DNA of 64,000 nucleotides from positions 1 to 64,000 of the forward strand of contig JBBQPO010000001.1 of assembly GCA_038217285.1 (NCBI GenBank), given 5' to 3'. The notes beneath the pieces are model-generated. The model was given only the letters and a program-made list of their open reading frames with translations, was not told the origin of the DNA and searched no databases. A program made the translations under genes and the position numbers. Positions 3,748 through 32,759 of this stretch are shown in pieces. Origin of the DNA: Chthonomonadales bacterium (GTDB lineage Bacteria > Armatimonadota > Chthonomonadetes > Chthonomonadales > Chthonomonadaceae). Position 1 is the first letter of the stretch; each line of letters opens with the position of its first letter.

Positions 3748-3750
3748 ACG

Positions 3751-4143: not shown

Positions 4144-5205
4144 ATGAACAGAGGCATTGTCCCCAGCAACTCTGACGATAATTCGGAGTTCGTGCTGTAC
4201 CAGACCGAAGACGGTCAATCCCGTGTGCAGGTGCGCGTCCTCGATGAGACCGTCTGGCTCACGCAACGACAATTGGCGGAACTCTTCCAGAAAACAGTTC
4301 CTACGATCAACGAACATATCCAGAACCTTTTTGAGGAAGGTGAGCTGGAACGGGATCCAACTATTCGGAATTTCCGAATAGTTGGAATGGAGGGCAGTCG
4401 GCAGGTTGAGCGAGAAGTTGACCACTACAATCTGGATGTCATCATCTCCGTCGGCTACCGAGTGCGCTCCCATCGCGGCACACAGTTCCGACAGTGGGCG
4501 ACGAAACAACTGCGAGAGCTTATCATCAAGGGATTTGTCCTGGATGATGAACGCCTGAAAGAAGGGCGCAATCTGGGCAGGGACTACTTCGACGAACTCC
4601 TGGAGCGCATCCGCGACATTCGCGCATCCGAGCAGCGGTTCTATCAGAAAATCTGCGACATCTACTCCACCAGCGTGGACTACGACAAAGCGCACCCCCT
4701 CACGCTGGAGTTTTTCAAGACCGTCCAGAACAAACTGCACTGGGCGATTCACGGACATACCGCCGCTGAGATCATCGTGGAGCGCGCCGATGGGACAAAG
4801 CCGAACATGGGTCTCACCACCTGGAAGAATGCTCCCGAAGGACGCATTCGCAAAGCAGACACCGAGATCGCCAAAAACTATCTGACCGAAGACGAGATTT
4901 CCAACCTTAACCTGATCGTAGATCAATATCTCTCTTTCGCCGAACTCCAGGCCCGACAACGCAAACCGATGACAATGGCAGACTGGAAGACGAAACTCGA
5001 CGCCTTCCTGACCCTGAACGACCGGGATATTCTAACAAACGCCGGAACCCTTTCAGCAGAGGACGCAAAGGAGATCGCCGCCAGCGAGTACAAAACCTAT
5101 CTTGCAGAACGCCGCCGTCTGGAAGCTGAGACAACCACCAGCGACTTCGATGAGTTTGTGGACCGGATCAAAAAATTGCCACCCACACATGAGGAGCAAA
5201 ACTAA
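4144..5205 (+). CDS. rhuM: RhuM-family protein
   Basis: ETVWLTQRQLAELF, YNLDVIISVGYRVRSHRGTQFRQWAT, KGFVLDDERLK, IRDIRASE, VQNKLHWA, IAKNYL. Confidence 0.92.
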   Translation: MNRGIVPSNSDDNSEFVLYQTEDGQSRVQVRVLDETVWLTQRQLAELFQKTVPTINEHIQNLFEEGELERDPTIRNFRIVGMEGSRQVEREVDHYNLDVIISVGYRVRSHRGTQFRQWATKQLRELIIKGFVLDDERLKEGRNLGRDYFDELLERIRDIRASEQRFYQKICDIYSTSVDYDKAHPLTLEFFKTVQNKLHWAIHGHTAAEIIVERADGTKPNMGLTTWKNAPEGRIRKADTEIAKNYLTEDEISNLNLIVDQYLSFAELQARQRKPMTMADWKTKLDAFLTLNDRDILTNAGTLSAEDAKEIAASEYKTYLAERRRLEAETTTSDFDEFVDRIKKLPPTHEEQN

Positions 5206-6458
5206 TGCAAACCACCCTTCCTTACAGCGAAGAAAACGAGGTCTCGGACGACTGTCTCGATCTGCCCAATGGATGGCAAGTCAAGAAACTTGGTCAGTTG
5301 GTGAAATTGAAATCTGGTGGAACACCTTCGAAATCCAACCCAACCTACTGGAACGGAGATATTCCTTGGTTGAGTGCCAAAGACCTCAAGTCATTTCGGC
5401 TTTCCTCAGCACAGGACATGGTGACAGAGTTAGCAGTAGCGAATGGTACGCACCTTATTTCTGCTAATCACTTGCTCATTTTAGTTCGTGGGATGACACT
5501 GCTAAAGGATGTTCCCATTGGCTTGACAACGTGCGCTGTAGCCTTCAATCAGGATCTGAAGGCTATGGAAGTACGACAGGGTACTGATGCAGCATATCTT
5601 GCCTACTGGCTTGTTGCCCACAAAGAATATTTGAAGGACTTGGTGGATCGCGCCGGACACGGAACGGGAAGATTGCCTACTGAACGACTAATCGAAGTGA
5701 AAGTCTGCTTGCCATCTTTGCCTGAACAGGCACTAATCGCCAAAATCCTAGATGACGCTGATGCTGTTGTTCGCGCCTCCGAAAGCCTGATCGAAGCCAA
5801 ATCCCGCTATAAACGCGCTCTTGCCGAACAACTACTGACAGGCAAGTTCCGGTTCCCTGAATTTAAGGGGCAGGCATGGCGTGAAGCAAAATTGGGTGAG
5901 TTTTTGTCACAGATGTCAGAACGTTGTCCTGTTAATGAGACACCTGTCGTATTGTCCTGTTCGAAACTATACGGCATATTGTTACAGTCGGATCGCTTTT
6001 CAAAGCAAATGGCCTCGCACGACTTACGACGCTATAAGTTCGTCGAGGCTGGCAATCTGGTATTCGACCCCATGCTTTTGTGGGACGCTTCCATCGCTTT
6101 CTCAGAATTACGCGGAGTTGTCTCACCTGCTTATTGTACTCTGCAGTTTGTGTCCGAACAGGCCGACCGGCGCTTTTTTCGCTATCTTCTCTACACTGCC
6201 ACTATGCGCTACAACTACAAGGCAATTTCAAAAGGAACCAACGCACGACGCAAAAAGGTCACAGCCTCTGATTTTCTCAAAATCGATGTTCGAATTCCTT
6301 CCCTGCTTGAGCAAAGCAAAATTGCAGAAGTACTGGAATTGGTGGATTCCGAGATCGCATTGCTACGCCGGGAACTGGACGTGCTGAAAAAGCAGAAGCA
6401 GGAATTAATGCATCAGTTGCTGACCGGGCAGGTGCGCGTGAAGGAGTTTCATCCATGA
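5205..6458 (+). CDS. hsdS: Type I R-M specificity subunit S
   Basis: Two TRDs (LPNGWQVKKLG, GGTPSKSNPTYW) with conserved PSLPEQ/PSLLEQ regions and LLTG motifs; visibly more AT-rich. Confidence 0.95.
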   Translation: MQTTLPYSEENEVSDDCLDLPNGWQVKKLGQLVKLKSGGTPSKSNPTYWNGDIPWLSAKDLKSFRLSSAQDMVTELAVANGTHLISANHLLILVRGMTLLKDVPIGLTTCAVAFNQDLKAMEVRQGTDAAYLAYWLVAHKEYLKDLVDRAGHGTGRLPTERLIEVKVCLPSLPEQALIAKILDDADAVVRASESLIEAKSRYKRALAEQLLTGKFRFPEFKGQAWREAKLGEFLSQMSERCPVNETPVVLSCSKLYGILLQSDRFSKQMASHDLRRYKFVEAGNLVFDPMLLWDASIAFSELRGVVSPAYCTLQFVSEQADRRFFRYLLYTATMRYNYKAISKGTNARRKKVTASDFLKIDVRIPSLLEQSKIAEVLELVDSEIALLRRELDVLKKQKQELMHQLLTGQVRVKEFHP

Positions 6459-9400
6459 GCGCGACAATAGGCCCGGACGATGAGGAAGTTGGCTTCGAAG
6501 GGACGGAGCGGGAGCAGTCGCAGATGGCTGCGGTTGCCCTACTCTCTCGTCTTGGCTACCAGTATTTGACGCGGAAAGAGGCGCTGGAGATGCGCGGTGG
6601 GAAGGCGTCACGTATCCTGCTGACGGACATCCTGAGCGCCCAACTTTCAAAACTGAATCGGATCCGCTACAAAGGCCGCGAGGAGTATTTCACTCAGGCG
6701 AACGTCCGGCGAGCGATCCAGGCTCTGGAGGATGTGCCGCTGGTCGAGGGGATGCAGAGGGCGGGGGAGCAGGTTTACGATCTGCTGCGCCTGGGCAAGA
6801 GCCTGGAACAGACTATTGAAGGCGACAAGGGAGAGCGGGATACTAAGAGCTTCACCATCCGCTATGTAGACTGGGAGAACCCGCAAAACAACGTCTATCA
6901 TGTCACCACGGAGTACAGTCTGCTTCGGGCGAGCAGTCAGAAGATGTGCTTGCTCGACGTGGTTCTCTTCGTCAATGGCATTCCGTTCGTCGTGGTGGAG
7001 TGCAAAAATCGGGGTGTAGATGTTGCCGAAGCCATCTCCAACATTCTGGCCTATCAGAGCGCCGATTTCGTGCCGGAACTGTTCAAATACATACAGGTCG
7101 TTCTCGCCACCAATGTCAACGAGGCGAAGTATGCGACGGTCGGAACCGAAGCGAAGTTCTGGGCGGTCTGGAGGAGCAGGGTAGATCCGGATGCGGAGAT
7201 CGAGGCGCTGCTTCGAAAACCTCTCCCTGAGAAAGAGCGTGAGGCCGTTCTGAGTAACTTCGTCCATGAAGAGCGGCAGTTCTACGCCATCGAACAGCAG
7301 GGACGTAAAGCGACGGAACAGGACCGGGCACTCTATAACCTGTGCCGCCCGGAATGCTTGATCGAACTGACCGGAAAGTTCGTTCTGTACGATGGCGGCA
7401 TCAAAAAGATCGCCCGGTATCACCAATACGACGCCGTCGAACAGGCGCTCAAGCGAATTCTCACCCGCCAGAGCGATGGCAAACGACTTGGCGGCGTCAT
7501 CTGGCACACGCAAGGCAGCGGCAAATCGCTGACGATGGTCATGCTCGCAAATGCGATTGCCCTGTCGAAAGAGATCGAGAACCCCCGTATCATCCTCGTC
7601 ACCGACCGCACCGACCTCGATAAACAGATTGCCGGAACCTTCTACCGCTGCGCTCTGGAGCCGAAACGCGCCACCAGCGGAGCCGATCTACGCCGGCTTG
7701 TCAGTGACAGCCGGGCGGGTGTCATTACCACGCTGGTACAGAAGTTTCAGGCGGCTATGACGCAGGGAGAGTTCACCGATGCTTCGCCGGACATCTTCGT
7801 ACTCGTAGATGAAAGCCACCGCACCCAGTACGGCACGTTGCATGCACAGATGCGTCGTGTCTTCCCGAACGCCTGTTATCTGGGTTTCACCGGAACCCCG
7901 CTTCTACGCGACGACAAAAGTACGCTGACAAAGTTTGGCGGACTGATAGATGCTTATGACATGGAGCAGGCAGTGGAGGACAAGGCGGTCGTGCCGTTGC
8001 TCTACGAGCGCCGCCATGTCCCGCAGGATGTTCAGAGCGGGCCGATAGATCGCTGGTTCGAGCGTATCTGTGAGGGATTGACCGAAGAGCAGAAGAAGGA
8101 TCTCAAAAAGAAGTATAGCCGTGCAGAGCCGCTTCTTAAGACCGATGAGAGACTGCGCGAAATCGCCTACGATGTGTGGGGACACTACCGCACAAGTTGG
8201 CAGGGAGCGGACGGTTTCAAGGCGCAGTTGGTCGCGCCGGATCGTCTCTCGGCTCTCAAACTGCACGACTACCTGGAAGACCTCGGCAAAACCGATGGCA
8301 AGACTATTTCATCCGCCGTCGTTATCTCGACCAATCGCGATGATCGCGAAGGTTATGAAGAGACAAACGATCCGATCTCCAACCGGATTGCGGACTTTGG
8401 AAGGCAGATAGAGAAGGAGTACGGCTCTGAAGAGCAGTACGATGAAAGCATTATAGATCGCTTCAAACACGCGGAGGAACCGGAAATTCTGATCGTGGTC
8501 GATAAATTACTGACGGGTTTCGATGCACCTTGCAACACCGTCCTCTACCTGGCTCGGCGTCTCGCCCACCATTCGCTGCTCCAGGCCATTGCGCGCGTCA
8601 ATCGTCTCTACCCTGGCAAAGAGTTCGGCTTCATTCTGGACTATGTCGGCGTGTTGGGGGAACTGGATCGCGCTTTGAATGAGTATGCCGCGCTAAAAGG
8701 CTACGATCTGTCCGACATCGAAGGCACCATCGATAGTATCCGAACGGAGCTCCAATCCTTACCGCAGCGCTATGCCGATCTGATAGATCTCTTCCGTTCC
8801 ATTCAGAACAAGAGCGATGAGGAGGAATATGAACTCCTCCTTGCCGAGGAGGACGTTCGCAAGGAGTTTTATAGTGTGCTGGCAGCGTTCTCGAAATCCC
8901 TGAAGATAGCGCTCTCCACGGAACTGTTCTATGAAGAGACGCCCCCAGAGGTCATCGAACGCTATAAGGTCGATCTACGCCGTTTCCAAAAACTACGTGC
9001 TTCCGTGCAGCGACGCTATGCGGATACCGTCGATATGAAGGCTTATGAACCGCAGATCGCCAAGCTGCTGGACACCTATGTCCATTCGGATGCCGTCGAA
9101 ATCCTGACTGCCGGTCCTATCAATATTTTTGACGACAAAGCGATGGAAGCGGCGCTGGAGCAGTTGACATCCAAAACAGAGGCGGCGCAAGCGGACCTGA
9201 TTGCCAGCAACACCGACAGGACGCTTATTGAGCGGATGGACGAAGACCCGGCGCTCTATCGCAAGTTTTCCGAAATGATTCAGGAGACGATCAAGGCATT
9301 CCGTGATCGCCTGATAACCGAGACGGATTACCTGCAAAGAGTGCTCGACATTCGTGGGCAGGTCGTTTCGCGTTCGGGGAGCGATGTGCCGACCCGGCTT

Positions 9401-9700
9401 GCAGGGAACGATATCGCCCAGGCATACTATCGTCTAGTGCTGGAACGCCTGGATACTATCACAAAACAACCGGGAGATAACGAAGTTGCTGTCGATCTGG
9501 CCCTGATGATTGAAGAGGCTATCCGTAAAGAGGTTGTCGTCGATTGGCGGCAGAAGGAGGACATTATCAACCGGATGCGCTCCAACATCGACGATGGGTT
9601 TTTTGAACTATCTGAGCAGGGCAAACTGGAACTCAACTGGATGGTACTGGACGAAATAGCCGGAGAAGCCTTGCGCGTTGCCAGGAGCAGACTGGAATGA
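6455..9700 (+). CDS. hsdR: Type I R-M restriction subunit R
   Basis: DVVLFVNGIPFVVVECK nuclease motif, HTQGSGKS Walker A, DESHR, GFTGTP, LLTGFDAP, QAIARVNR. Confidence 0.97.
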   Translation: MSATIGPDDEEVGFEGTEREQSQMAAVALLSRLGYQYLTRKEALEMRGGKASRILLTDILSAQLSKLNRIRYKGREEYFTQANVRRAIQALEDVPLVEGMQRAGEQVYDLLRLGKSLEQTIEGDKGERDTKSFTIRYVDWENPQNNVYHVTTEYSLLRASSQKMCLLDVVLFVNGIPFVVVECKNRGVDVAEAISNILAYQSADFVPELFKYIQVVLATNVNEAKYATVGTEAKFWAVWRSRVDPDAEIEALLRKPLPEKEREAVLSNFVHEERQFYAIEQQGRKATEQDRALYNLCRPECLIELTGKFVLYDGGIKKIARYHQYDAVEQALKRILTRQSDGKRLGGVIWHTQGSGKSLTMVMLANAIALSKEIENPRIILVTDRTDLDKQIAGTFYRCALEPKRATSGADLRRLVSDSRAGVITTLVQKFQAAMTQGEFTDASPDIFVLVDESHRTQYGTLHAQMRRVFPNACYLGFTGTPLLRDDKSTLTKFGGLIDAYDMEQAVEDKAVVPLLYERRHVPQDVQSGPIDRWFERICEGLTEEQKKDLKKKYSRAEPLLKTDERLREIAYDVWGHYRTSWQGADGFKAQLVAPDRLSALKLHDYLEDLGKTDGKTISSAVVISTNRDDREGYEETNDPISNRIADFGRQIEKEYGSEEQYDESIIDRFKHAEEPEILIVVDKLLTGFDAPCNTVLYLARRLAHHSLLQAIARVNRLYPGKEFGFILDYVGVLGELDRALNEYAALKGYDLSDIEGTIDSIRTELQSLPQRYADLIDLFRSIQNKSDEEEYELLLAEEDVRKEFYSVLAAFSKSLKIALSTELFYEETPPEVIERYKVDLRRFQKLRASVQRRYADTVDMKAYEPQIAKLLDTYVHSDAVEILTAGPINIFDDKAMEAALEQLTSKTEAAQADLIASNTDRTLIERMDEDPALYRKFSEMIQETIKAFRDRLITETDYLQRVLDIRGQVVSRSGSDVPTRLAGNDIAQAYYRLVLERLDTITKQPGDNEVAVDLALMIEEAIRKEVVVDWRQKEDIINRMRSNIDDGFFELSEQGKLELNWMVLDEIAGEALRVARSRLE

Positions 9701-10398
9701 GCAGCGTCACCTACGGAAGCCGGACTATCTCCTATTCACTGAATCGTGCAGACCGCAAGACACTGGCCATCACCGTAAAGCCAGATATGTCCGTCGTAGT
9801 CTCCGCTCCACATGCCGCAGAACAAGAAGCCATCGAGTGCATTCTGCGCAAGCGCTCTGCCTGGATAGTTCGTCAACAGCGTTTCTTCGCCCAGTTCTTG
9901 CCACGTACCCCTGCCCGGCAGTTTGTAAGCGGGGAGACCCATCTTTACCTCGGGCGGCAGTATCGCCTGCGCCTCCGTCAAGCCGAAAATGAAGACGTCA
10001 AACTGATCGCCGGTTACCTCTATATCTATGTTGGAGACACTTCCGATGGAGATAAAGTGAGAGAACTGCTCTGTCACTGGTACGCGACCCACGCCGAAGT
10101 GCGGTTCAACGAACGCTTAACAGCCTGTATGCAACAGATCGCAGGCTGGAACATTCCGATGCCCCAATTAGACCTCCGCAGTATGGCGCGTAGCTGGGGC
10201 AGTTGCAGTCCAACCGGACGTCTGACGCTCAATATCGATCTGGTACGCGCTCCGCGCGCCTGCATCGATTACGTGATCCTTCACGAATTCTGTCATCTTG
10301 TTCATCCCAACCATTCGAGAGAGTTCTACAAACTGCTCGCGACGGTCTTACCTGATTGGCGAAGCCGGAAAATGCGTTTGGAAAAGATACTGTCGTAG
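9697..10398 (+). CDS. M48/YgjP (DUF45)-type metallopeptidase associated with type I R-M
   Basis: GETHLYLG, WGSCS, DYVILHEFCH (HExxH), NHSREFY; ATGA overlap with hsdR. Confidence 0.9.
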   Translation: MSSVTYGSRTISYSLNRADRKTLAITVKPDMSVVVSAPHAAEQEAIECILRKRSAWIVRQQRFFAQFLPRTPARQFVSGETHLYLGRQYRLRLRQAENEDVKLIAGYLYIYVGDTSDGDKVRELLCHWYATHAEVRFNERLTACMQQIAGWNIPMPQLDLRSMARSWGSCSPTGRLTLNIDLVRAPRACIDYVILHEFCHLVHPNHSREFYKLLATVLPDWRSRKMRLEKILS

Positions 10399-10736
10399 AG
10401 ACATTATAGGCTACGGTTTTGTGACGCAGGCAGTAAGTCGGCGGTCCAGGTCGAGAAGCAGGAATAGACCCGTTCCGAAACAACATCGGAACGGGTCTTT
10501 CTCTCATTCCAAGGAACCGGATTTCCTCGTCAGAGAAGTCTCTCACAACTCTGCCACATAATCCTCTTCCGAGCGCCTTCCAACGCATACTTCCACCGCG
10601 TCCGACGGTCTTGACGGCAGCCGTTTTCCCATAGCGAACGTTTTCTTGCAGGATATACGACGTTTACGTCGAACTTGGGATTACTGGCTTCGATGTCCGC
10701 TACAGAAGCAAATGCCAACCCTCCTGGATACGCCCG

Positions 10737-12773: not shown

Positions 12774-13870
12774 GGCCTCCTGTGCGTGTGGCAGTGATCG
12801 GAACCGGCTGGTGGGCGACGGCCACCCACATTCCAGCGCTGCTTGAGGACCCCGCCGTCGAACTCGTCGCGCTGTGCGACCGGAGCGCGGAGCGGGTGCA
12901 GACGGCCGCGACCGCCTTCGGCATCGAACGTACCTACACCGACCACCGCGTGCTGCTGGCCGAGATGCGCCCGGACGCGGTCGTCGTCGCTACCACCCAT
13001 GCGACGCACTTCACGGTCGCCGACGACTGCCTTGCGGCGGGGACGCACGTGCTTATCGAGAAGCCCATGACGCTCCTGGCAGCGGATGCACGCGCCCTGG
13101 TGGAGCATGCGGGACGAGTCGGTCGGGCCGTGATCGTCGGGTATCCGTGGAACTACCTCGCGCAGGTCCGACAGGTTCAGGCGCGGATCGCCTCCGGAAC
13201 GCTCGGCCTGATCCAACTGGTGCAGTGCGTCTTCAACTCGTACAACGCCGATCTTATCGCTGGCAAGGACCGCTCGGCGCATCCCGGAGGTTATGCGGTG
13301 CATGGACCAGGCGATGTCTATAGTCGGCCGGAACACTCCGGCGGCGGGCACGGGCACCTCCAGATAACCCACGCGGCGGGACTGCTCTGCGCCGTCACCG
13401 GCCTGCGGGTCGCGCGGGTGCAGGCGCGCATGGCGAACCACGGCCTGCCGCTCGATCTGGTCGATGTCATCCTTGTCGAGTTCGAGGGCGGCGCTCTGGG
13501 CACGGTGAGCGGAACCAGCAACGGCTTCCTTCCAAAAAGTACTCTCTCCCTCGGCTGCGCACGCGGCAGTGTGGAGATGGATATTTTTACCGGAACAACC
13601 GTGATTAAGGCGGCAGACGCCGAACGCGAAGCGCTTCCGACCGTGGAAGAGCCCGACACGCGGTTCGCGCCGGTGCGCCACTTGATCGCCATCGCCCAGG
13701 GCATAGAAGCGCTGCCTGCGCGCCCTGAAGTCGGCCTGCACGCCGTGGAACTTCTCGATGCCGCATACCGCTCCGCCGCCGCGAACGGCGCGCCCGTCCG
13801 CGTGGAGGAGCTGTATCCACGGGATTTCAATCCCGACGACCCTGGATTGTCAAAGAGGACAAACACATGA
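12770..13870 (+). CDS. Gfo/Idh/MocA-family oxidoreductase
   Basis: VAVIGTGWW Rossmann motif, HVLIEKPM; start moved to ATG 12770 (GGAGG SD, ATGA overlap). Confidence 0.9.
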   Translation: MRPPVRVAVIGTGWWATATHIPALLEDPAVELVALCDRSAERVQTAATAFGIERTYTDHRVLLAEMRPDAVVVATTHATHFTVADDCLAAGTHVLIEKPMTLLAADARALVEHAGRVGRAVIVGYPWNYLAQVRQVQARIASGTLGLIQLVQCVFNSYNADLIAGKDRSAHPGGYAVHGPGDVYSRPEHSGGGHGHLQITHAAGLLCAVTGLRVARVQARMANHGLPLDLVDVILVEFEGGALGTVSGTSNGFLPKSTLSLGCARGSVEMDIFTGTTVIKAADAEREALPTVEEPDTRFAPVRHLIAIAQGIEALPARPEVGLHAVELLDAAYRSAAANGAPVRVEELYPRDFNPDDPGLSKRTNT

Positions 13871-17473: not shown

Positions 17474-17486
17474 GGAGAGGCGCGTC

Positions 17487-20025: not shown

Positions 20026-20066
20026 CAAGAGCCGAACAAAAAATTTGTTCGGCTCTTGTATTTTTG
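20026..20066 (+). terminator. Intrinsic terminator-like hairpin
   Basis: CAAGAGCCGAACAAA-AAA-TTTGTTCGGCTCTTG followed by TATTTTT. Confidence 0.6.
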
Positions 20067-22699: not shown

Positions 22700-22838
22700 C
22701 TTCGAAGCTCCTATGTTCGTGGGAGTTGGGAGGGGCGCGTCAATGATCCCGGGACGACGTTCGCGGCAGGCCACAGCGCCCTCTCTACATCGGTTCCTCA
22801 CGGTGACGTTTCCCTGCTGTCTGTCGGGAAAGACGGCT

Positions 22839-25112: not shown

Positions 25113-25140
25113 TGTTGAGCACGTGACGGACAGGCGTGAG

Positions 25141-25290
25141 CGACAGCAGGCAAGCGATGGAATGAATTCCGTTCGCATGTGACCCGCCCGACGGAATCGA
25201 CAGCAGGCGAGCGATGGAATGAATTCCGTTCGCATGCGACCCGTCCGACGGAAGCGACAGCAGGCGAGCGATGGAATGAATTCCTTCGCT
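25141..25290. repeat. 57-bp tandem repeat, about 2.6 copies, with palindromic core GGAATGAATTCC
   Basis: Units start at 25141, 25198 and 25255; a degenerate partial copy lies near 25095. Confidence 0.9.
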
Positions 25291-25312
25291 AGGAGCCTTC
25301 GGCTGAGTGACC

Positions 25313-25537
25313 GCCTTCGCGGGCACAAAGCACTGACTGCAACCCTGTCTCTCGTCCGTGAGGACGATCCGGCGGAGCCGTGTAGCGAGGGGTGATAACC
25401 CCTTGACCGCCCCAAGACGCTGGTGTCGCCTCGTCCGACGGGCTTCCTGCCGAACCCGCGTAGCGAGGGGTAACACCCCCTGGCTGCCGAACACGCGTGG
25501 CGAGGGGGAACACCCCTTGGCCTTCGCGGGCACAAAG
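25313..25537. repeat. GTAG-type REP cluster
   Basis: GT(A/G)GCGAGGGG..ACCCC hairpins at 25382, 25460 and 25497, bracketed by the direct repeat GCCTTCGCGGGCACAAAG (25313-25330 and 25520-25537). Confidence 0.75.
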
Positions 25538-25607
25538 ACGTTGCATTTCGAAAAAGCAATGGCTCTGGAACCGATAGGCCGATCTCTCTCTTCATGGGTG
25601 GCGCGCT

Positions 25608-28325
25608 CTACTTGACGCCAGCGGCGCGCTGGGCGCGGATCAGGCCGGGTACGGCGGTGAGGGCCTCGGTGAGTTTGCCGGGATCGCGTCCACCCGCCTG
25701 CGCAAAGTCGGCGCGCCCGCCTCCACCCCCGCCCGTCATCTTCGCGACCTCGCGCACCAGATTGCCCGCATGCAGGCCCTGGGCGATCAGGTCGGGCGTC
25801 ACCTTGGCGGCGAACGAGACCTTGCCGGCGTTGACCGTGCCGAGCACGATGACCGCCGAATGGAGTTTCTGCGCCGTGCTGTCGGCGAGATTGGCGAGCA
25901 TCTCGGGGTCGGCGTTGTCGAGCTGCTGAACGACGACCGCGATGCCGTCCAGGTTTTGTGGCGTCAGATCTGCCTCATGGGCCGAGCCGCCGCCCGCCCG
26001 AAGCTGCCGGTTCTGTTTCTCCAGCTCCTGGCGCTGCGCCAGCAGGCGCTCCGTCGCGGTGAGGACATCGTTGATGTTCGCTTTGAGCAGCCCGGCGAGT
26101 TGCGCCAGCGTCTCTTCTTGTCGCTGCACGAACTCATACGCGCCCACGCCGGTCACGGCCTCGATACGCCGTACCCCCGACGCCACGCCCGACTCCGAGA
26201 CGATCTTGAACAGACCGACCTGGGAGGTGCGCGCCAGATGGATGCCTCCACACAGTTCCAAACTGAAGCCAGGGATCTCGACCATCCGCACAGAGTCGCC
26301 GTACTTCTCGCCGAAGAGGGCCATCGCCCCACGAGCACGCGCCTCTGCAATCGGGATGTCGGTAAAGATCGTCACTTCGGCGTCGTCCAGCACGTGCGCG
26401 TTGACCATCTCCTCGACGCGGCGAAGCTCGGCAGCGGTCATCGGCTGGGTGTGGGTGAAGTCGAAGCGCAGACGCTCGGGCGCGACGAGCGAGCCTTTCT
26501 GATGCACATGGCCGCCCAGCGTCTGCCGGAGCGCAGCCTGGAGCAGGTGCGTCGCGGTATGGTTGCGCACGATGTGCCGCCGACGGGTGGCGTCCACGGT
26601 CGCGGTGACGGTCTGCCCGACGGTCGCCTCGCCTTCCAGCACCTTACCGGTATGGAAGAAGACGCCGCCGGTCTTTTTGGTGTCGGTGACCTCGATCTTC
26701 AGGGTGCAGGTGGTGTCGCCGCCGGGAGCAGTGAGAAGGCCGGTGTCGCCGACCTGTCCGCCCGACTCCGCGTAGAAGGGGGTCCGGTCGAGGGCCACGG
26801 TGATGGTTTCGCCCGCCCGCGCGAAGCTGACCTGCTCGCCGCCGCTCAGCAGCGCGACGATCTTGCTCTCCGCCGTGGTCTGGCTGTAGCCGAGGAACTG
26901 CGTCGGCGCGTCGAGGGTCAACGGTGTGCCGCCAGAGGTGACGAAGACCTCTTTCTCGCCGCCCGCCGCACGGGAGCGTTCCCGCTGCTCGGTCATGGCG
27001 GCTTCGAAGCCCGCCATGTCGAGAGCAAACCCGTGCTCCTGCGCTATCTCTTCCGTCAGGCGCAGGGGAAAACCGAAGGTGTCGTAGAGGGAGAAGATCT
27101 CGCGGCCAGGCAGGATCTTCGACGCCTGCAGCGCGGGGTTCGACAGCATCTCTTCCAGACGGCTCATGCCGTTGTCGAGGGTCTTGCGGAAGCCCTCTTC
27201 CTCGCGCTGGATCGTCTTGAGGATCAGTTCGCGACGCTCGTGGAGATCGGGATAGAAGTCGCCCATCTGCGCGATGATCTTCGGCGCGACCTCGTGCAGG
27301 AACGGCGCGTCGAAGCCCAGTACCGACTTGCCGTAGCGAATGGCGCGGCGCATGATGTAGCGCAGCACGTAGCCGCGACCTTCGTTGGACGGCAGGATGC
27401 CATCGGCGATACAGAAGGTCATCGAGCGCGTATGCTCCGCCACCACCCGGAACGCGAAATCGACAGGATCCATCGTGCCGCCATAGGGCTTGCCGGAGAG
27501 GGTCGCGATCTGCTCCAGCGTCGGGCCGAACAGGTCGGTTTCGAAGACGCTGCTCTTCTGCTGGGAGACCAGCGCGATCCGGTCGAGGCCAGCGCCGGTG
27601 TCGTTGTTCTTCTTCGGCAGGGGGGTCAGCAGGGGCGCACCGCTCGGCTCCTCGCTGCGGTCGAACTGGGTGAAAACGTTGTTCCAGACCTCGAGCCAGC
27701 GGCCCGCGCTGTCATCGACGAGGTAGCGCTCGGTGGGAGTCAGCGCGGGATCGGATGTCATCTCCTCCAGCGGCGCGACGCGATAGAAGACTTCGGAGCA
27801 GGGCCCGCACGGCCCGTTCGGCCCCTCGATGATGGCGTTGGCGGGCCAGAAATTCTTGTCCGCACCCAGCCGATGGATGCGATCCTCGGGCAGCCCAATG
27901 ACTTCGTTCCAAATCTTAAACGCCTCGTCGTCCTCGACATAGACCGTGACGCAGAACCGGTCCTTGTCCAGCCCGACCACCTCCGTCAAAAACTCCCAGG
28001 TCCACGGGATTACTTCCGCCTTGAAGTAGTCGCCGAAGCTGAAGTTGCCAAGCATCTCGAAGAGCGTGCAGTGTGAGTAGTCACCGACGCTGTCGATATC
28101 GTTCGTGCGCAGGCACTTCTGCACCGTCACAACACGGGACTGCGGCGGCGTGGCGGCTCCCGTGAAGAAGGGCTTGAACTGCTGCATGCCCGCACTGGTA
28201 AAGAGGGTCGAGGTATCGGGGTTGCCGAGCGCATCCACCGGGGTCAACGGCGCGCCCGGCAGAGGCAGATGTCCCCTGCTCTGAAAAAACTCGATATACT
28301 TCTGGCGTATCTCATGCGCTAACAT
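25608..28325 (-). CDS. alaS: Alanine--tRNA ligase
   Basis: LFTSAGMQQFKPFF, FEMLGNFSFGDYFK, GPCGPCSE, HTATHLL, ELCGG, GGGGGRADFAQAGG; start MLAHEIRQ at 28325. Confidence 0.98.
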   Translation of the reverse strand: MLAHEIRQKYIEFFQSRGHLPLPGAPLTPVDALGNPDTSTLFTSAGMQQFKPFFTGAATPPQSRVVTVQKCLRTNDIDSVGDYSHCTLFEMLGNFSFGDYFKAEVIPWTWEFLTEVVGLDKDRFCVTVYVEDDEAFKIWNEVIGLPEDRIHRLGADKNFWPANAIIEGPNGPCGPCSEVFYRVAPLEEMTSDPALTPTERYLVDDSAGRWLEVWNNVFTQFDRSEEPSGAPLLTPLPKKNNDTGAGLDRIALVSQQKSSVFETDLFGPTLEQIATLSGKPYGGTMDPVDFAFRVVAEHTRSMTFCIADGILPSNEGRGYVLRYIMRRAIRYGKSVLGFDAPFLHEVAPKIIAQMGDFYPDLHERRELILKTIQREEEGFRKTLDNGMSRLEEMLSNPALQASKILPGREIFSLYDTFGFPLRLTEEIAQEHGFALDMAGFEAAMTEQRERSRAAGGEKEVFVTSGGTPLTLDAPTQFLGYSQTTAESKIVALLSGGEQVSFARAGETITVALDRTPFYAESGGQVGDTGLLTAPGGDTTCTLKIEVTDTKKTGGVFFHTGKVLEGEATVGQTVTATVDATRRRHIVRNHTATHLLQAALRQTLGGHVHQKGSLVAPERLRFDFTHTQPMTAAELRRVEEMVNAHVLDDAEVTIFTDIPIAEARARGAMALFGEKYGDSVRMVEIPGFSLELCGGIHLARTSQVGLFKIVSESGVASGVRRIEAVTGVGAYEFVQRQEETLAQLAGLLKANINDVLTATERLLAQRQELEKQNRQLRAGGGSAHEADLTPQNLDGIAVVVQQLDNADPEMLANLADSTAQKLHSAVIVLGTVNAGKVSFAAKVTPDLIAQGLHAGNLVREVAKMTGGGGGGRADFAQAGGRDPGKLTEALTAVPGLIRAQRAAGVK

Positions 28326-28402
28326 GGTGTCTGGTTGCTCCGATAAGGTGATCTGTTGCCGTATAAGACAGAGGCGAGGCCAGTATAGTATACACGACAA
28401 CG

Positions 28403-28510
28403 TCAAATCGAAGACAGCGCCGGTTTCAGGCCAAGGGCTGTTTGAGCTTCTTTTGGAAGAACCAACCTGCCGTTCGGCTCAACCGTCGCGTGATACTGTA
28501 ATGTTGCCAT
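28403..28510 (-). pseudogene. Truncated AbrB/MazE/SpoVT-like small ORF (35 aa)
   Basis: AAGAGG SD, then MATLQYHATVEPNGRLVLPKEAQTALGLKPALSSI*; too short to appear in the ORF track. Confidence 0.6.
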
Positions 28511-28560
28511 GCTTTATGCCTCTTGTAGTTAAACTGCACCCTCTCTGTTCACGACATCAT

Positions 28561-31500
28561 TTATACACCGGATGCGATGACGCTGTGGAGCATTGTAGAA
28601 ATGTATGACGTTTTGTCTTCGACCTGGAAGAGAACGTTGCGACTTGCAAACTCCGCTTTCTCATCGGCGGCCCACCAGCCGACTGACTTGAATGGAGTTG
28701 TCGAGACGATGAAGGAGTTCAGGACGACACTGGGGTCGCCCAGACGTGCCTCCAGCTCTTTGATGGTCTTGTAGAAGGCGATCTTCGGATCGTTTAGCCC
28801 GGCAAGATTGCGAATTCCTTTGGGGTCGATGAAGGTCACGAACTGTCGGTCGCCTTCGACAAGCCAGAGGATAAAGTCGGGATAGAAGTTGCCCGCCTCG
28901 AAGAAGCCGATGCCTCGGCCACGGCTCATATTGCGGAGAAGGTAGAGTTCGCGCCCCTGGAAGAACTCGCTATGGCTCTCATAGAACTTACGAAGGTCTT
29001 CGACGAAGTCGCGCTCGCCGACATTCAGTGGAACCGGCGTGATCTCCAGCAGTTTGTTCTTGAGATGCAGCAACGGTCTGTAGAGATGTCGGGAGAACCC
29101 GAGCGCCACAAGCGAATCGAAACTCCAGCCATCCTCGCGGAGTTGTCCGGAGGTAACCAGTGATTTCAGTTCCGTCAGTTTGGCGACGACCTCCTCCCGT
29201 TCCTGGTCTACCCAGATTCGGTACTGCTGGATGAAGTTCGGGTCGTCGGGAGCAATCTCTCGGTACTGCGTATGGGGCCGTTCGAACTCCGCTTTGCGGT
29301 AGAGATAGAGCCTTTCCACGTATTTCTTGAGCAGGGCGACAGCGATCTCCTGCCAGCGACGCACCTTACCGAAATCGGTAAAATCCAGTTCCGCTGCCGG
29401 AATGTAGAGCGTATACCAGTCGTCGCGTTGGAGTATCTCAGAGACAGCCTCTCGGGAGAGGTTCAGGTTATACCAGGAACGCTCCGCCTTGTAGTTCTGC
29501 AGCGCAAACCAGATTTCGTCCCAATTGAAGAACGCCGTATGGAGAGGCGTCAACTTGTGCGTCTCCAGAGCGCTCTCATCCGCTGGACGGCCTGTTCCCT
29601 TGCTCTGTTGCGCTTGAATCCTGGGATACCAGTTCAATGAAACCGGCGGCAATCCTCCGGCTGGGGGCTCCAGATTCGGTTTCGTTCCCTGCCGCTTAAA
29701 ATCAACATCCTTCGGAACGTCCAGCACTTTTAATCTCCTTGATCCAAGGTTGTTGATGACCGGAAGTTCGAAAACGTCTTCTGAATCGCCAGGGGGAACA
29801 CCCTCCTCTTCAAGCATCTCCTTAAACTGGGTCATGTAGTCGGCACGAACGCCGAACACATTCAGGGTTTCCAGGAAACGAAGGGACTTCGGCGGTTTGG
29901 GATTCAGTTCTAGCATGGACGAGCGTTTCAAGCTCATCTCATGCCCCTTCAGGCGCACGCCACGCCCGAAAAGCTGAATGATCTGCGATCCTTCCGAGCG
30001 CCCGATGTTCATCAGTCCCATCGTCGAGACCCGCCAACTGTTCCAGCCTTCTGTAAACTTACGAGAACCGATGAGGATGTTGACCCTGGAATCTTTATCG
30101 TTGAGGCGTGCGAAGACCGAACCGCTAAACTGCTTCTCCCCGGTTATTAGCCCGGCCGCTTCGCAAAGCGCGTGTAGCCTCGGAGCGTCGCCGACGTTGA
30201 TGACGCCAAAAGCCTCATTGTCGCCCAGACGCAGAGTCAACTCGCCGTTCGAGCCTTTGAGCAGATCCACATGGAGAGCGGCCTGGAAGGGAGCATTGCA
30301 TACCAGATCCAGGATACCTTCGTAGGCTTGCTGACCGGTCATCCCCGACGTGTTCAAGTAATCGAAGGCGCCGGAGCCAAAAACGGAGCGGCCCTTCTGA
30401 TCTCGCAAAGAGCCATCGTAGTTCAGGAGCCTCTGCAAGCGAACAACCGATTTCGCGCCTGCATTCGCAATGAACTCTTTGAAGAAGAGCAGCACCGTGG
30501 TGACGTCCGAGACTTCGCGTTTGTCCTCTGTGCGAACGGCATTCACGCTGCCGCCGACGAAGATGGCGAGAGGCTTTTCCAGCAGGAACTTCGCAAATTC
30601 GGCACCCTTATCTTTGTATAAGCGGATCTGCTGATAGAAGGAGAGCAGGCAGGCGGTCAGGTAGAGATTCCGTATCTCGGCATCCTGGTCCTCTACGAGG
30701 TTCAGGATGCGATACTCTTTCCCGTAGCCGTCGCGATAGAAATACTTGTAGGAGTAGTCGAACAAGATACACCGCGCATACTCCTGCTCTAGTTTCCGTT
30801 GCGTGGCTCCGGCAGCGGCACGGACGACCTGGCCGAAAGTCGCAGAGTATTCAAAGGAAAAGCCCTGCTCGGCGAGCCTGTCACGCATCGACTTCCAGAC
30901 TTCGCCGCTTGCACCGCGATGGCCTTCGTCTACCAGCACCAGGTTGTTACCTTCGAAGGCTTCGATAGCGACCGCCTTATCGCCCATCTCTTCCTTGAGT
31001 TTGGTGATCTCGATGACCTCGACAGCCTTGCCGGAGAAGAGCGATGCGCCGTCCTTCCGGAAGATGTCGGCTTCGATACCGGACTTCGCGAACTCCTCCA
31101 GGTGCTGCCGTGACAGCCCTTCGTTCGGCGTCAACAGGATGATTCGGTTCAGGTCGCGCCCGCGCCCATGAGAGTTCAGATAGTGCTTGTACTGGAGGAT
31201 ATTGACGTGCATGAGCAGCGTTTTGCCGGAACCGGTGGCGCTCCAAAACGCGATTTTCCGCAGGTCTTCCAGTTTGTAAAGCTCAATGCCCGCAGCGTTG
31301 TCTCGATTGAACTCCCTGGAGAATGTATTCAAGTCAGCCAGCAAGCCGTTGAGATCCCGGAAATAGCGGTCGAGATAGATCTCGGCAAAAAGCAGGCTGA
31401 GATACTGGAAATACTTCCACTGCATCGGCTCGGGGCGACTTGCACTGATCGTCTGCGTATGCCGGACGATATTGTTGTCGTAGCGCAGGAGGTCGTCGTC

Positions 31501-31737
31501 CCGCAAATTGGCGCGTTCGACCGTCCGGTTGACCAACTGTTTGTGCAGGTGCGAGACGTTATCAACGTCAAGCCCTTCCAACTCCGGTCGCTTCAACTCC
31601 GAGGCAAGGTCTTCAAACCGCTCGACTTCGAAAAGCGACAGCATCCAGCGCACAAGAACCAGCTTCTGGTCGAAGCGCAAGGCAGGAGCAAGCATCTGCG
31701 GTTGCCCCGCATAGACCTGGGTGCGAGCGCGCCGCAT
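28561..31737 (-). CDS. Type III R-M restriction (Res) subunit-like helicase/nuclease
   Basis: ATGSGKT Walker A, DEGH, YSATF, QLFGRGVRL, C-terminal FYPDFILW...FIDPKG PD-(D/E)xK motif. Confidence 0.92.
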   Translation of the reverse strand: MRRARTQVYAGQPQMLAPALRFDQKLVLVRWMLSLFEVERFEDLASELKRPELEGLDVDNVSHLHKQLVNRTVERANLRDDDLLRYDNNIVRHTQTISASRPEPMQWKYFQYLSLLFAEIYLDRYFRDLNGLLADLNTFSREFNRDNAAGIELYKLEDLRKIAFWSATGSGKTLLMHVNILQYKHYLNSHGRGRDLNRIILLTPNEGLSRQHLEEFAKSGIEADIFRKDGASLFSGKAVEVIEITKLKEEMGDKAVAIEAFEGNNLVLVDEGHRGASGEVWKSMRDRLAEQGFSFEYSATFGQVVRAAAGATQRKLEQEYARCILFDYSYKYFYRDGYGKEYRILNLVEDQDAEIRNLYLTACLLSFYQQIRLYKDKGAEFAKFLLEKPLAIFVGGSVNAVRTEDKREVSDVTTVLLFFKEFIANAGAKSVVRLQRLLNYDGSLRDQKGRSVFGSGAFDYLNTSGMTGQQAYEGILDLVCNAPFQAALHVDLLKGSNGELTLRLGDNEAFGVINVGDAPRLHALCEAAGLITGEKQFSGSVFARLNDKDSRVNILIGSRKFTEGWNSWRVSTMGLMNIGRSEGSQIIQLFGRGVRLKGHEMSLKRSSMLELNPKPPKSLRFLETLNVFGVRADYMTQFKEMLEEEGVPPGDSEDVFELPVINNLGSRRLKVLDVPKDVDFKRQGTKPNLEPPAGGLPPVSLNWYPRIQAQQSKGTGRPADESALETHKLTPLHTAFFNWDEIWFALQNYKAERSWYNLNLSREAVSEILQRDDWYTLYIPAAELDFTDFGKVRRWQEIAVALLKKYVERLYLYRKAEFERPHTQYREIAPDDPNFIQQYRIWVDQEREEVVAKLTELKSLVTSGQLREDGWSFDSLVALGFSRHLYRPLLHLKNKLLEITPVPLNVGERDFVEDLRKFYESHSEFFQGRELYLLRNMSRGRGIGFFEAGNFYPDFILWLVEGDRQFVTFIDPKGIRNLAGLNDPKIAFYKTIKELEARLGDPSVVLNSFIVSTTPFKSVGWWAADEKAEFASRNVLFQVEDKTSYISTMLHSVIASGV

Positions 31738-32759
31738 CAGTTGTTCTCCTCGGACGAGCGCCCCTGAATCCGCTTTACTTCCCGCTCGAAATCGCTTTCG
31801 AACGCTCTGTCCTGCTTGACCCGAAATTCGGCATATTGCGCTTCGGCAAGCTGCTTTGCCACTTCCCTGGATACTTCGCCCGGGTTCGTCAAGACTTCGT
31901 ATTCGTTGAACTTGAGGAACGCGTCGAGACGGGCGACCCAGTCGGTCATTCGCATAGGAATATGGCGGGCAGCCTGATTTTCGGCATAGTCAAGGTACAT
32001 GCCGACGATGCGTTCGAGTTCTTTGATCTCCTGCTCGATGAGATAGTTCTTCGCCACGCAGACGTCGGCTTTCAGGATCTTTCCGTCCGGCCCGTTCTTC
32101 CAGTGGGTCAGTCCCATGCTCGGCCTGGAAGCGTCCGCACGAGAAGCGATGATCTCTGCCGCCGTCTGTCCTGTGACAGCCCAGTGAAGCTTGTTCTGCA
32201 CCGTGGCGAAGAATGTCTTCGTGATCTCGGCGTCTTTGTCGTAGTCTATGCTCGCCTGCTCATAGATGTCCGTGATCTTGAGGTAGAACCGTCGTTCGCT
32301 GGCGCGAATTTCGCGTATCCGCTCCAGCAACTGGTCGAAGAAGTCTTTCCCAAAGCGTGTGTTCAGTTTCAGACGCTCATCATCGAGGACAAAGCCCTTT
32401 ACGACAAACTCTTTGAGCGTTTGCGTCGCCCAGATGCGAAACTGCGTCGCCTGGAGACTATTGACCCGGTAGCCAACGGAGATAACCGCATCGACACTGT
32501 AGAACTGCACCTGATATGTCTTTCCGTCATCGGCAGTATGTGCAAATTTTGCACATACTGCCTCGCTGTCCAGTTCGCCCTCGTCAAAGATGTTAGACAA
32601 ATGCTTGGTGATGACACTGCGATCAACCGCAAATAGTTCGGCCATTCGCTTTTGTGTCAGCCAAAACGTGTCCTCGTCAAAGAGAACCTCTACCTTTACC
32701 GTTCCGTCATGCGACCGGTAGAGAATGACGTCACCCCGCTTGAGTTCCGGCTGATCCAT
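31737..32759 (-). CDS. rhuM: RhuM-family protein (second copy)
   Basis: FWLTQKRMAELF, VISVGYRVNSLQATQFRIWAT, KGFVLDDERLK, VQNKLHWA; start MDQPE overlaps the mod stop. Confidence 0.92.
   Translation of the reverse strand: MDQPELKRGDVILYRSHDGTVKVEVLFDEDTFWLTQKRMAELFAVDRSVITKHLSNIFDEGELDSEAVCAKFAHTADDGKTYQVQFYSVDAVISVGYRVNSLQATQFRIWATQTLKEFVVKGFVLDDERLKLNTRFGKDFFDQLLERIREIRASERRFYLKITDIYEQASIDYDKDAEITKTFFATVQNKLHWAVTGQTAAEIIASRADASRPSMGLTHWKNGPDGKILKADVCVAKNYLIEQEIKELERIVGMYLDYAENQAARHIPMRMTDWVARLDAFLKFNEYEVLTNPGEVSREVAKQLAEAQYAEFRVKQDRAFESDFEREVKRIQGRSSEENN

Follow-up and report, generated by a model that had tools for sequence, protein, structure and literature searches.

A conserved palindrome inside rhuM genes as a predicted operator for the winged helix-turn-helix of the encoded protein

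We find that the two rhuM genes in a 64,000-nucleotide stretch of bacterial DNA (the window) carry a palindrome at the same codon position, and that homologous genes keep it through a constraint that acts on nucleotides. Its exact position is conserved, and its inner bases covary with the helix-turn-helix (HTH) of the encoded protein. Our preferred reading, which we regard as reasonably probable on comparative grounds, is that the N-terminal winged HTH of the gene's own product reads the 25-bp palindrome, in double-stranded DNA, as an operator that has diversified among lineages and likely serves autorepression. We found no published description of the intragenic palindrome in the literature, and this candidate built-in control site of rhuM has apparently been undescribed until now.

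Results

Both proteins match Pfam PF13310 (Virulence_RhuM) above its gathering score of 33.7 bits (rhuM-1, 390 bits, E 5e-117; rhuM-2, 365.5 bits, E 2e-109), and they share 50% identity. The profile begins at the palindrome-encoded peptide (residues 73/74). Both are also full-length matches to PADLOC PDC-S05, a single-gene candidate defence system (E 4e-154 and 4e-149). The genes and their neighbours are listed in Table 1.

Table 1. Coordinates of the rhuM genes, their neighbours and the elements discussed in the text
Feature	Position	Strand	Remarks
hsdM (N6_Mtase, HsdM_N)	2227..3747	+	upstream of rhuM-1
rhuM-1 CDS	4144..5205	+	353 aa; PF13310 / PADLOC PDC-S05; stop overlaps hsdS start
rhuM-1 codons 50-57 (KTVPTINE)	4291..4314	+	turn and N-terminus of second HTH helix (H52-64); covary with core
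rhuM-1 25-bp palindrome (12-1-12)	4359..4383	.	centre 4371; inner core ATTCGG; peptide class R..R; outer AACT/AGTT
rhuM-1 codons 74-95, wing	4363..4428	+	beta-hairpin of predicted winged helix; first strand palindrome-encoded
hsdS	5205-6458	+	downstream of rhuM-1; starts and stops overlap along rhuM-1/hsdS/hsdR
hsdR	6455-9700	+	downstream of rhuM-1; start overlaps hsdS stop
ResIII / SWI2-SNF2 helicase-type restriction subunit gene	28561..31737	-	1058 aa; downstream of rhuM-2
rhuM-2 CDS	31737..32780	-	347 aa; PF13310 / PDC-S05; overlaps methylase gene end, abuts res-type helicase gene
rhuM-2 25-bp palindrome (12-1-12)	32535..32559	.	centre 32547; inner core TGTGCA; peptide class A..A; outer AGTA/TACT (V..T type)
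rhuM-2 codons 52-59 (VDRSVITK)	32604..32627	-	HTH turn and helix start
N6_N4 DNA methylase gene	32759..35812	-	1017 aa; upstream of rhuM-2
Other perfect palindromes, arms of at least 14 bp	3751-3779, 20026-20058, 61204-61237		all three between long ORFs

The sequence-only reading had described perfect 15-1-15 palindromes, and these are indeed present, at 4356-4386 and, in the minus-strand gene, at 32532-32562. Both directly follow the EGEL motif and have as their unpaired centre the last base of the codon that precedes Phe (N76, AAT, in rhuM-1; K78, AAA, in rhuM-2), about 215 bp into the gene and within the wing codons. The 15-bp arms are real in both copies, but the unit conserved in the family is 12-1-12, position 13 being paired at only 20 of 82 loci. 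Because conserved pairing stops at position 12, and because the palindrome of same-genus relatives with the same core ends at position 12 or 13, the longer arms are incidental. We note that windows with incidentally longer arms are those that a reader tends to choose. The arms of the two copies, previously called unrelated, instead represent two classes of one scheme in which the outer bases are AACT or AGTT, the centre is A/T and the core varies.

Chance is excluded as an explanation for this arrangement by a family-wide comparison, drawn from the best 80 loci per collection and hence from relatives that are roughly 50-70% identical. Of 205 distinct homologous stretches, 204 have their best 10-pair window (within ±25 nt) centred on the same codon base, and 191 keep at least nine of the ten pairs at positions 3-12. 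These homologues come from bacteria, archaea and viral contigs. When other centres in these stretches serve as controls, the mean is 2.57 of 10 pairs, and at least eight pairs are reached in 0.1% of 21,525 cases. The palindrome is retained in many bacterial phyla, in archaea and in viral contigs, and it is also present in PDC-S23 genes, whose C-terminus differs. Two of the 205 sequences have lost it, among them L142, which has 2 of 10 pairs yet retains a full-length open frame. The proposed tie to an embedding in restriction-modification (R-M) genes does not hold, since an R-M neighbour was seen at 20 of the 54 loci examined and the palindrome in nearly all homologues.

In the aligned loci, the constraint acts on nucleotides. 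Watson-Crick pairs fill 789 of 820 cells at positions 3-12 (82 loci), with two to four pair types at most positions. Pairing amounts to 11.30 of 13, compared with 8.20 under synonymous resampling (sd of the mean 0.117), and exceeds all 2000 resamples (maximum 8.65). Similarly, third-base entropy is 0.69 bits in codons -4 to +4 versus 1.72 bits outside (minimum 0.98). Pairing, resampling and entropy thus strongly support the earlier idea of a nucleic-acid-level element hidden in a coding region. Base identity is constrained as well: among loci with four-fold degeneracy in both partner codons, 77 of 78 have A:T at position 12 and 27 of 32 have T:A at position 9. The formula of symmetry rather than sequence is therefore correct in that symmetry is kept, but it misses that the outer bases are also fixed and that the inner bases track the gene's own helix. 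The peptide residues encoded by paired codons obey a reverse-complement rule (I-I, V-T, C-Q/H, R-R, K-L, A-A, S-E, G-P).

Repetition of the REP or MITE type would predict many copies, but neither 25-mer recurs in the 6.2-Mb assembly at up to five mismatches; one match with six mismatches, on C322, was judged to be chance. Half-sites are not enriched in the assembly (8 extra each, about 27 expected), and a search for a second operator near the rhuM genes gave none (5 of 82 loci, about 2 expected). An intrinsic terminator was rejected, given that neither palindrome of the rhuM-1 region has a terminator-like site and that no T run follows either rhuM palindrome. Besides the rhuM pair, the window contains three perfect palindromes with arms of at least 14 bp.

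The AlphaFold2 model (mean pLDDT 80.1) places two helices, H41-48 and H52-64, before a beta-hairpin, E74-83 and E86-95. The predicted model thus has the layout of a winged helix, with an HTH and a hairpin wing, and the palindrome-encoded peptide is the first strand of that wing. The closest solved fold is the DNA-bound 8csh_A (Z 6.5, rmsd 1.3 Å over 50 residues), followed by the winged HTH structures 3ez9_A (Z 6.2), 8u1j_A (Z 6.1) and 7npd_A (Z 5.7). The HTH and hairpin of the pSK1 Par DNA-binding domain (8csh_A) and of the ParA N-terminal winged HTH (3ez9_A, 7npd_A) can be superposed on the RhuM model without a detectable sequence relation; with all Z scores below 8, only the fold class is common to both. 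The top Foldseek match was DdrC (E 1.1e-3, TM 0.22/0.32). No curated Pfam HTH family scored above its cut-off, HTH_24 coming closest with 15.9 bits against 21.9 and others being weaker. Membership of the C-protein or XRE family was likewise rejected, as HTH_3 and its relatives are unlisted even at E up to 10.

Beyond the palindrome peptide, only the columns at offsets -26 to -19, codons 50-57 of rhuM-1, follow the core class among phylogenetically independent pairs. At matched background identity, the identity of same-class minus different-class pairs is +0.16 to +0.34 in these columns, and the 14 codons between them and the palindrome show no co-switching (-0.03 to +0.04). In other genomes, too, the VDRSVITK type of motif found in rhuM-2 goes with GTGCA cores (L165, L178, L197, L201).

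This covariation extends to a site that is purely synonymous. Within the R..R class, position 6 carries the third-base pair C:G in 23 of 23 cases with R/K at residue -23 and T:A in 34 of 34 with another residue; in a larger set, position 6 tracks residue -23 in 63 of 63. All seven independent pairs on supported branches of a FastTree tree agree, which amounts to few independent events (seven supported pairs on this tree, four on another). GC3 is similar in the two position-6 groups (0.57 vs 0.53, P 0.33). Among 125 protein columns, residue -23 is the best predictor of position 6 (0.63 bits; next best, 0.18) and residue -19 that of position 3 (0.76 bits). When 73 new metagenome sequences were used as a hold-out, the fit held for 32 of 33 R..R and 13 of 13 K..L sequences. 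Residue -19 also pairs with residue +2 of the peptide, in the combinations E/R, L/L and K/E. A contact inside the protein may account for part of the covariation, and most of all for this last pairing; the synonymous-site results alone escape that objection. Among the mechanisms listed in the sequence-only reading, a self-binding operator is the one favoured by the covariation of HTH and core, synonymous sites included. For a cassette diversified by inversion or template switching we found no support: class changes accompany HTH changes, and the centre holds either A or T.

The same covariation would be equally expected if the protein bound RNA. An mRNA hairpin could act generically, by slowing ribosomes or stabilising the transcript, or it could be a stem-loop to which the protein's own N-terminal domain binds in translational autoregulation. 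In fact, both copies fold as RNA, each with a 14-bp stem and a 3-nt loop (-21.5 and -23.9 kcal/mol; z -5.1 and -6.5; 0 of 200 shuffles fold equally well), and strict pairing at positions 3-12 around a looser centre resembles a 10-bp stem with a 5-nt loop. We nevertheless consider an RNA-level element unlikely. Mismatches in 2050 stem cells show no G.U bias (22 of the sense G.U type, 28 of the antisense type, 39 other), and pairing alone does not require the fixed base identity at synonymous stem positions; these two observations disfavour the earlier suggestion of a hairpin sensor. An HTH that reads ten consecutive pairs of an A-form stem would be unusual, and the predicted winged helix is of the kind that reads duplex DNA. 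Rfam 15 gave no match at E up to 1 in positions 3600-5300.

A hairpin or cruciform in the DNA itself, whether as a structure-specific site of recombination or cassette exchange or as a supercoiling sensor, appears quite improbable to us. Structure alone needs neither fixed identity at synonymous sites nor residue-specific covariation with the HTH, and a recombinase is not consistently adjacent (the nearest neighbours of 54 loci included a single integrase and a single transposase). In favour of such a structure are the perfect palindrome with an A/T-rich centre, single-stranded DNA folds of -14.7 and -16.4 kcal/mol, and a same-genus locus (L184) in which the block exchanged relative to rhuM-1 starts within the palindrome and ends after the wing.

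Palindromes of this size are typical of dimeric regulators, and the outer AACT/AGTT bases are nearly universal, as they might be for a host factor not encoded by rhuM; such a factor is very unlikely, however, because the element spans many bacterial phyla, archaea and viral contigs without a common factor and because its variable core follows the gene's own HTH. Least credible of all is a functionless palindrome, perpetuated by template-switch correction of quasi-palindromes or left as a by-product of protein constraint: such correction could yield co-changing arms and the reverse-complement rule of the peptide pairs, but synonymous resampling and third-base entropy exclude protein constraints, and under neutral correction one would expect neither an A:T fixed at position 12 nor a linkage that skips the intervening codons to reach residues 19-26 codons away.

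Discussion

If the palindrome is an operator, the N-terminal winged HTH of RhuM would bind it in its own gene, presumably as a homodimer. The turn and the start of the second HTH helix (residues 50-57 in rhuM-1) would read the inner base pairs, positions 3-8 of each half-site, while the conserved outer pairs 9-12 would lie within reach of the wing. Since the predicted operator lies in the codons for the first strand of the wing, site and DNA-binding module would travel as one unit. Lineages appear to have diversified into private helix/core pairs, and such private specificities would account for the different arms of the two copies in this genome. Among co-resident copies in one genome, 0 of 33 pairs share a core (2 expected, P 0.13).

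Bound RhuM would block elongating RNA polymerase and thereby exert negative autoregulation. We infer this roadblock, as we do binding and dimer formation, and autorepression is the likely output. With polymerase held at the palindrome, output of the toxin-type C-terminal domain would be throttled too, as would that of the downstream restriction genes (hsdS and hsdR in the case of rhuM-1).

Operators within coding regions, acting as roadblocks or auxiliary sites, include that of PurR in purB codons, lac O2 in lacZ and gal OI in galE. Like the predicted rhuM operator, these sit in codons downstream of the promoter; they differ in that they regulate other genes, lie outside the codons of a DNA-binding domain and are not known to co-diversify with one. 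Diversification of this kind is familiar from lambdoid phage immunity, where HTH proteins and odd-length palindromic operators have diverged into non-cross-reacting pairs. Those operators are intergenic, whereas that of rhuM would be intragenic, and the specificity pair would consequently form a single inseparable stretch of about 100 bp.

According to PMC6237814, C.Kpn2I, the controller of the Kpn2I R-M system, has its binding site within the sequence that encodes it and, when bound, stalls elongating RNA polymerase, resulting in negative autoregulation, and the authors consider that such an arrangement may be widespread. RhuM resembles it as an HTH protein in R-M context with a predicted binding site in its own coding region, and a conserved candidate site of this type is found in 204 of 205 homologues. 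RhuM may work like a C-protein, though it is outside that family. C.Kpn2I is, as described there, a small XRE-like protein whose site lies at or just upstream of the ORF start and lacks obvious paired inverted repeats, while RhuM is a predicted winged helix fused to a toxin-type domain, and its gene has a strict palindrome of 25 bp some 215 bp from the start. New with respect to this precedent would be a palindromic site inside the wing codons that has co-diversified, in distinct classes, with the protein's own predicted HTH. A further likeness is the autoregulation by RGG motifs and G-quadruplexes treated in PMC11789052, where a protein element and the nucleic-acid element that it binds share one coding stretch. 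That system is eukaryotic, acts at the RNA level and arises from codon composition, whereas the apparent DNA-reading residues of RhuM lie 19-26 codons upstream of the site.

In the RhuM passages of PMC3710099, RhuM-like genes take the place that DOC or PrrC toxins have in R-M operons and are thus placed among proposed toxins, with a C-terminal domain proposed, though not established, to modify proteins; those passages do not mention an intragenic palindrome. PrrC of EcoprrI and other toxin-type genes embedded in Type I R-M systems share, on that account, the genomic niche of rhuM. We can imagine, as a speculation to which we give little credence, that own-gene binding is the sensing step of a one-gene defence, in which the toxin-type C-terminus would be inactive while the N-terminus sits on its cognate site. 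If so, the cell would contain no cognate site but the palindrome, which would amount to a privately addressed DNA "antitoxin"; the toxin would be released once that site was lost, damaged, displaced or out-titrated in the course of phage attack or gene loss. Fast co-diversification of helix and core would then reflect selection for addresses that phages or sister copies cannot mimic. As reported in the preprint 10.1101/2024.09.26.614923, one PDC-S05 gene in E. coli B lowered the plating of T7 and T5 about 1000-fold and that of T4 about 10-fold.

Two rhuM genes with an internal palindrome

The two RhuM-type proteins encoded in the window are 50% identical to each other and both match PADLOC PDC-S05, a candidate single-gene defence family; no further such genes are present in the 6.2-Mb, 459-contig assembly. 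rhuM-1 is placed between hsdM on one side and hsdS-hsdR of a Type I system on the other, and rhuM-2 is flanked by an N6/N4 methylase gene and a ResIII-type helicase gene. Restriction operons and defence islands carry RhuM-type genes as some of their commonest passengers. The sequence-only reading had described a perfect 15-1-15 inverted repeat within each gene, and a sequence check recovers both exactly as described. RhuM in restriction-modification (R-M) operons has been proposed to act as a toxin (PMC3710099), and one PDC-S05 gene reportedly protected E. coli B against T7, T5 and T4 (preprint 10.1101/2024.09.26.614923).

Genes, palindromes and inverted repeats in the window
Feature	Position	Strand	Remarks
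rhuM-1	4144-5205	+	PF13310, E 5e-117; palindrome 4356-4386
rhuM-2	31737-32780	-	PF13310, E 2e-109; palindrome 32532-32562
Perfect 14-1-14 palindrome	3751-3779		Starts 4 bases past hsdM stop codon
Perfect palindrome, 15-bp arms	20026-20058		Between long ORFs
Perfect palindrome, 15-bp arms	61204-61237		Between long ORFs
Perfect inverted repeats, 18 bp	3879-3896 and 4049-4066		Bracket about 150 bp in the hsdM/rhuM-1 interval

A 12-1-12 unit is conserved across the family

Homologues were collected from one-genome-per-species contigs spanning many bacterial phyla and archaea (best 80 loci), viral contigs (best 80 loci), genomes of the window's own phylum and, as a hold-out, metagenome contigs (best 80 loci), and tblastn was used to place, in every locus, the codon that corresponds to N76 of rhuM-1. 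Among the first 82 loci, 78 have their longest perfect palindrome (within ±25 nt) centred exactly on the third base of that codon. Counting outward from the unpaired centre, 789/820 cells at positions 3-12 are Watson-Crick paired in these loci, with positions 7, 10, 11 and 12 paired in 82/82 and most positions showing two to four pair types. Position 13 is paired in just 20/82. As pairing is kept to position 12 and lost at 13, the conserved unit is 12-1-12, or 25 bp. The exact 15-bp arms remarked on in the sequence-only reading are therefore true of both window copies but not of the conserved unit, and same-genus relatives with an identical core lack them.

The 231 mapped loci correspond to 205 distinct 160-nt stretches, in which all ten positions are paired in 138, nine in 53, eight in 12, and six or two in two. 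The best centre is offset 0 in 204/205; at other centres in these stretches the mean is 2.57 pairs. The palindrome is kept in bacteria, archaea and viral contigs, both inside and outside R-M operons; an R-M gene is a nearest neighbour in at least 20 of 54 loci, a count that covers the first 100 neighbour ORFs out of 145. It is also kept in PDC-S23 genes, which have only the N-terminal module in common (9-10 pairs in 8/8). That the palindrome persists across lineages, with or without R-M genes, and in PDC-S23 genes that share only this module, points to a reader probably encoded in the N-terminal module itself.

The module is matched in 188/401 sampled genomes of the window's phylum, often in several copies each. 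Many short or stop-interrupted fragments of it also occur in this phylum, some of them ending just past the palindrome region. E. coli K-12 dinD (NC_000913.3 3817760-3818584), a distant protein that is not closely related to the N-terminal module in the window, has a partial palindrome at codon 57 (7/10 pairs).

The constraint acts on nucleotides and favours DNA

Family-wide pairing exceeds synonymous controls, with 11.30 of 13 pairs observed and 8.20 (sd of the mean 0.117) obtained when codons were redrawn by each gene's own usage. Third-base entropy is 0.69 bits in codons -4 to +4 and 1.72 bits elsewhere (never below 0.98). The amino acid at codon -4 is variable (1.86 bits), while its third base is A in 81/82 loci. 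The encoded peptides are very unlike one another (TIRKFRIV, TVKEYLTV, TCKDYLQV, TVANFATV, TISILETV, TIGKFPIV, TTEESSVV) and change only as mirrored pairs with reverse-complement codons (R-R, K-L, A-A, S-E, G-P, E-S, I-I, V-T and C-Q/H). Judged from these alignments, the constraint is on the nucleotides and not on the peptide; the excess over resampling and the low third-base entropy bear out the sequence-only reading's proposal of a nucleic-acid-level element within codons.

Both copies have strong predicted folds, as RNA and as single-stranded DNA. Mismatches among 2050 stem cells comprise 22 of the sense G.U type, 28 of the antisense type and 39 others, with no wobble preference. At sites where the codons of both partners have four-fold degeneracy, position 12 is A:T in 77/78 loci and position 9 is T:A in 27/32. 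Any pair at such sites would serve a hairpin, yet the bases are fixed, which argues for reading by sequence. The element thus appears to be DNA rather than RNA. The earlier suggestion that symmetry and not sequence is conserved is incomplete, as base identity is also conserved at positions 12 and 9. There is no Rfam match in 3600-5300, and promoter and terminator scans reveal nothing at the palindrome; one promoter-like site was found at 4418-4445, a number equal to shuffle expectation.

Helix residues covary with the palindrome core

All protein columns were scanned against the class of the inner core (positions 3-8) in phylogenetically independent pairs, taken from a tree that left out the palindrome columns. 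Only offsets -26 to -19 (codons relative to the centre codon), equivalent to residues 50-57 of rhuM-1, track core class, and the match between core and motif can be seen by eye.

Palindrome cores and the accompanying helix-turn-helix (HTH) motifs, offsets about -23 to -18
Core	HTH motif
CGG	T-I-N-E-H
TCGA	T-I-N-Y-H..E
CAAG/TAAG	Q-N-I-S/T-x-H
TGCA	S-x-I-S-R/K-H
TTCC	P-A-I-S/N-K-H
CCGAGG	D-T-I-G-L-H

Hitch-hiking was controlled for by matching background identity. Same-class minus different-class identity is +0.16 to +0.34 at offsets -26 to -19, and the palindrome itself is likewise more alike within class, whereas the 14 intervening codons give -0.03 to +0.04, and the wing (the β-hairpin of the predicted winged helix) and the rest -0.03 to +0.05.

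As a control for coupling within the protein alone, position 6 was set against residue -23. Genes whose palindrome encodes the mirrored pair R..R use ATC, ATT, GTC or GTT at codon -2 and CGG or CGA at codon +2, which makes the position-6 pair purely synonymous. In rhuM-1, residue -23 is P53 and the position-6 pair T:A. In these genes the position-6 pair is C:G with R/K at -23 in 23/23 genes and T:A with another residue in 34/34; on supported branches, 7/7 independent pairs agree. In a larger set of 161 proteins, the rule holds in 63/63, the independent pairs numbering 4 on supported branches and 16 when all branches are counted. K..L genes have C:G with K-Q in 15/16 and T:A with other residues in 10/10. 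GC3 is alike in both position-6 groups, as a composition control. Among 125 columns, -23 is the best predictor of position 6 (0.63 bits, next best 0.18) and -19 of position 3 (0.76 bits), each outperforming the codons that contain those bases.

In the hold-out of 73 new distinct metagenome sequences, the rules fit 32/33 R..R and 13/13 K..L genes. Residue -19 is E in 36/40 R..R and 0/18 K..L genes, K/R in 6/6 A..A and K in 5/5 S..E. An intra-protein contact could contribute to the signal of residue -19; the synonymous test at position 3 lacks power, having three informative A:T cases and a single independent pair.

Among natural swaps, sequences that are otherwise 82-89% identical in pairwise comparison have exchanged the start of the helix and the core together. 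A locus in a same-genus genome (L184, genome G369), compared over window 4144-4570, matches rhuM-1 at about 95% identity up to the palindrome and again beyond the wing. It retains helix and core and has exchanged the outer AACT/AGTT block (positions 9-12) together with the wing. The block is flipped (AGTT..AACT, peptide V..T), and the wing, of another type, has 3 residues fewer. The difference has the look of a small cassette-like exchange, one edge of which falls within the palindrome.

Predicted structure

An AlphaFold2 model from a 78-sequence alignment (mean pLDDT 80.1) displays three strands, helices at 41-48 and 52-64, and a β-hairpin at 74-83/86-95. With the helices so placed, the covarying residues would form the turn and the N-terminus of the second HTH helix, and the first strand of the wing is the stretch encoded by the palindrome. 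Among solved structures, the closest folds are those of winged-helix DNA-binding domains, all with Z under 8: pSK1 Par bound to DNA is the best match (Z 6.5, rmsd 1.3 Å over 50 residues), alongside ParA N-domains, the DdrC N-domain, Dachshund/Ski and Mbp1. A sequence search of solved structures gave nothing below E 0.1, and an ESM Atlas search no lead (best score 0.76). A dimer would place its helices in adjacent major grooves with the wings reaching outward, a geometry that core centres ~11 bp apart and conserved flanks beyond them would fit.

The helical C-terminal RhuM domain (rhuM-1 model residues 140-300) weakly resembles GntR/FadR FCD ligand-binding domains (Z 4.6-5.8), a likeness within the range expected of unrelated helical bundles.

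Candidate target and regulation

Each 25-mer is present once in the genome, with no further copies genome-wide. Other copies of the 12-nt arm lie near the rhuM-type genes at 5/82 loci, with about 2 expected, which gives no second site there. A single copy of each 25-mer in the genome and no second nearby site suggest that the cognate target is the gene itself. C.Kpn2I binds inside its own coding region and blocks elongating polymerase (PMC6237814). This is the closest tested precedent for the rhuM palindrome, and by this analogy we favour autorepression by roadblock as the probable output; we infer binding, dimerisation and roadblock alike. A roadblock in rhuM-1 or rhuM-2 would, besides, hold down the toxin-type domain and the genes that follow, hsdS-hsdR or res.

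Co-resident copies have a core in common in 0/33 pairs against 1.99 expected (P 0.13), an underpowered comparison, and a coarse class in 9 of 33 against 9.4 expected. The sequencing runs listed for the locus include no RNA run, and in four contig-level DNA runs nothing was seen at the palindrome among the differences listed. A literature search on RhuM, PDC-S05, ORF6N palindromes and HTH operators within their own coding region found no description of this element; PMC7581432 deals with sites beside a gene, not inside.

If this reading is true, a widespread DNA-binding module has its operator written into the codons for its own wing, and whichever operon, host or phage the gene then enters, its regulation comes along. 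Protein and site would have split, as a pair, into many private specificities, which would explain two copies in one genome without cross-talk, and how a toxin-type gene and downstream restriction genes could be kept low. Strong, so far unexplained synonymous-site constraint would be accounted for. The family would then provide a natural table of helix-residue to base-pair rules (e.g., R/K at -23 with C:G at position 6; E, L/M or K/R at -19 with CGG, AAG or GCA cores), directly testable and reusable as orthogonal repressor/operator parts.

Other repeats in the window

Besides the two in rhuM-1 and rhuM-2, the window contains three perfect palindromes whose arms measure at least 14 bp, all between long ORFs. 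The one next to hsdM has no sequence relationship with those in the rhuM genes, and the last has the form of a bidirectional terminator (G+C-rich stem, A run on one side, T run on the other). An open-frame screen for intragenic palindromes in the genome was set aside as not discriminating at 60% GC, since 182/228 lie in some frame of at least 120 aa. In part of the interval between hsdM and rhuM-1 (3999-4112), summed depth in public metagenome contigs is far above that of the flanks, as for a dispersed MITE-like repeat.
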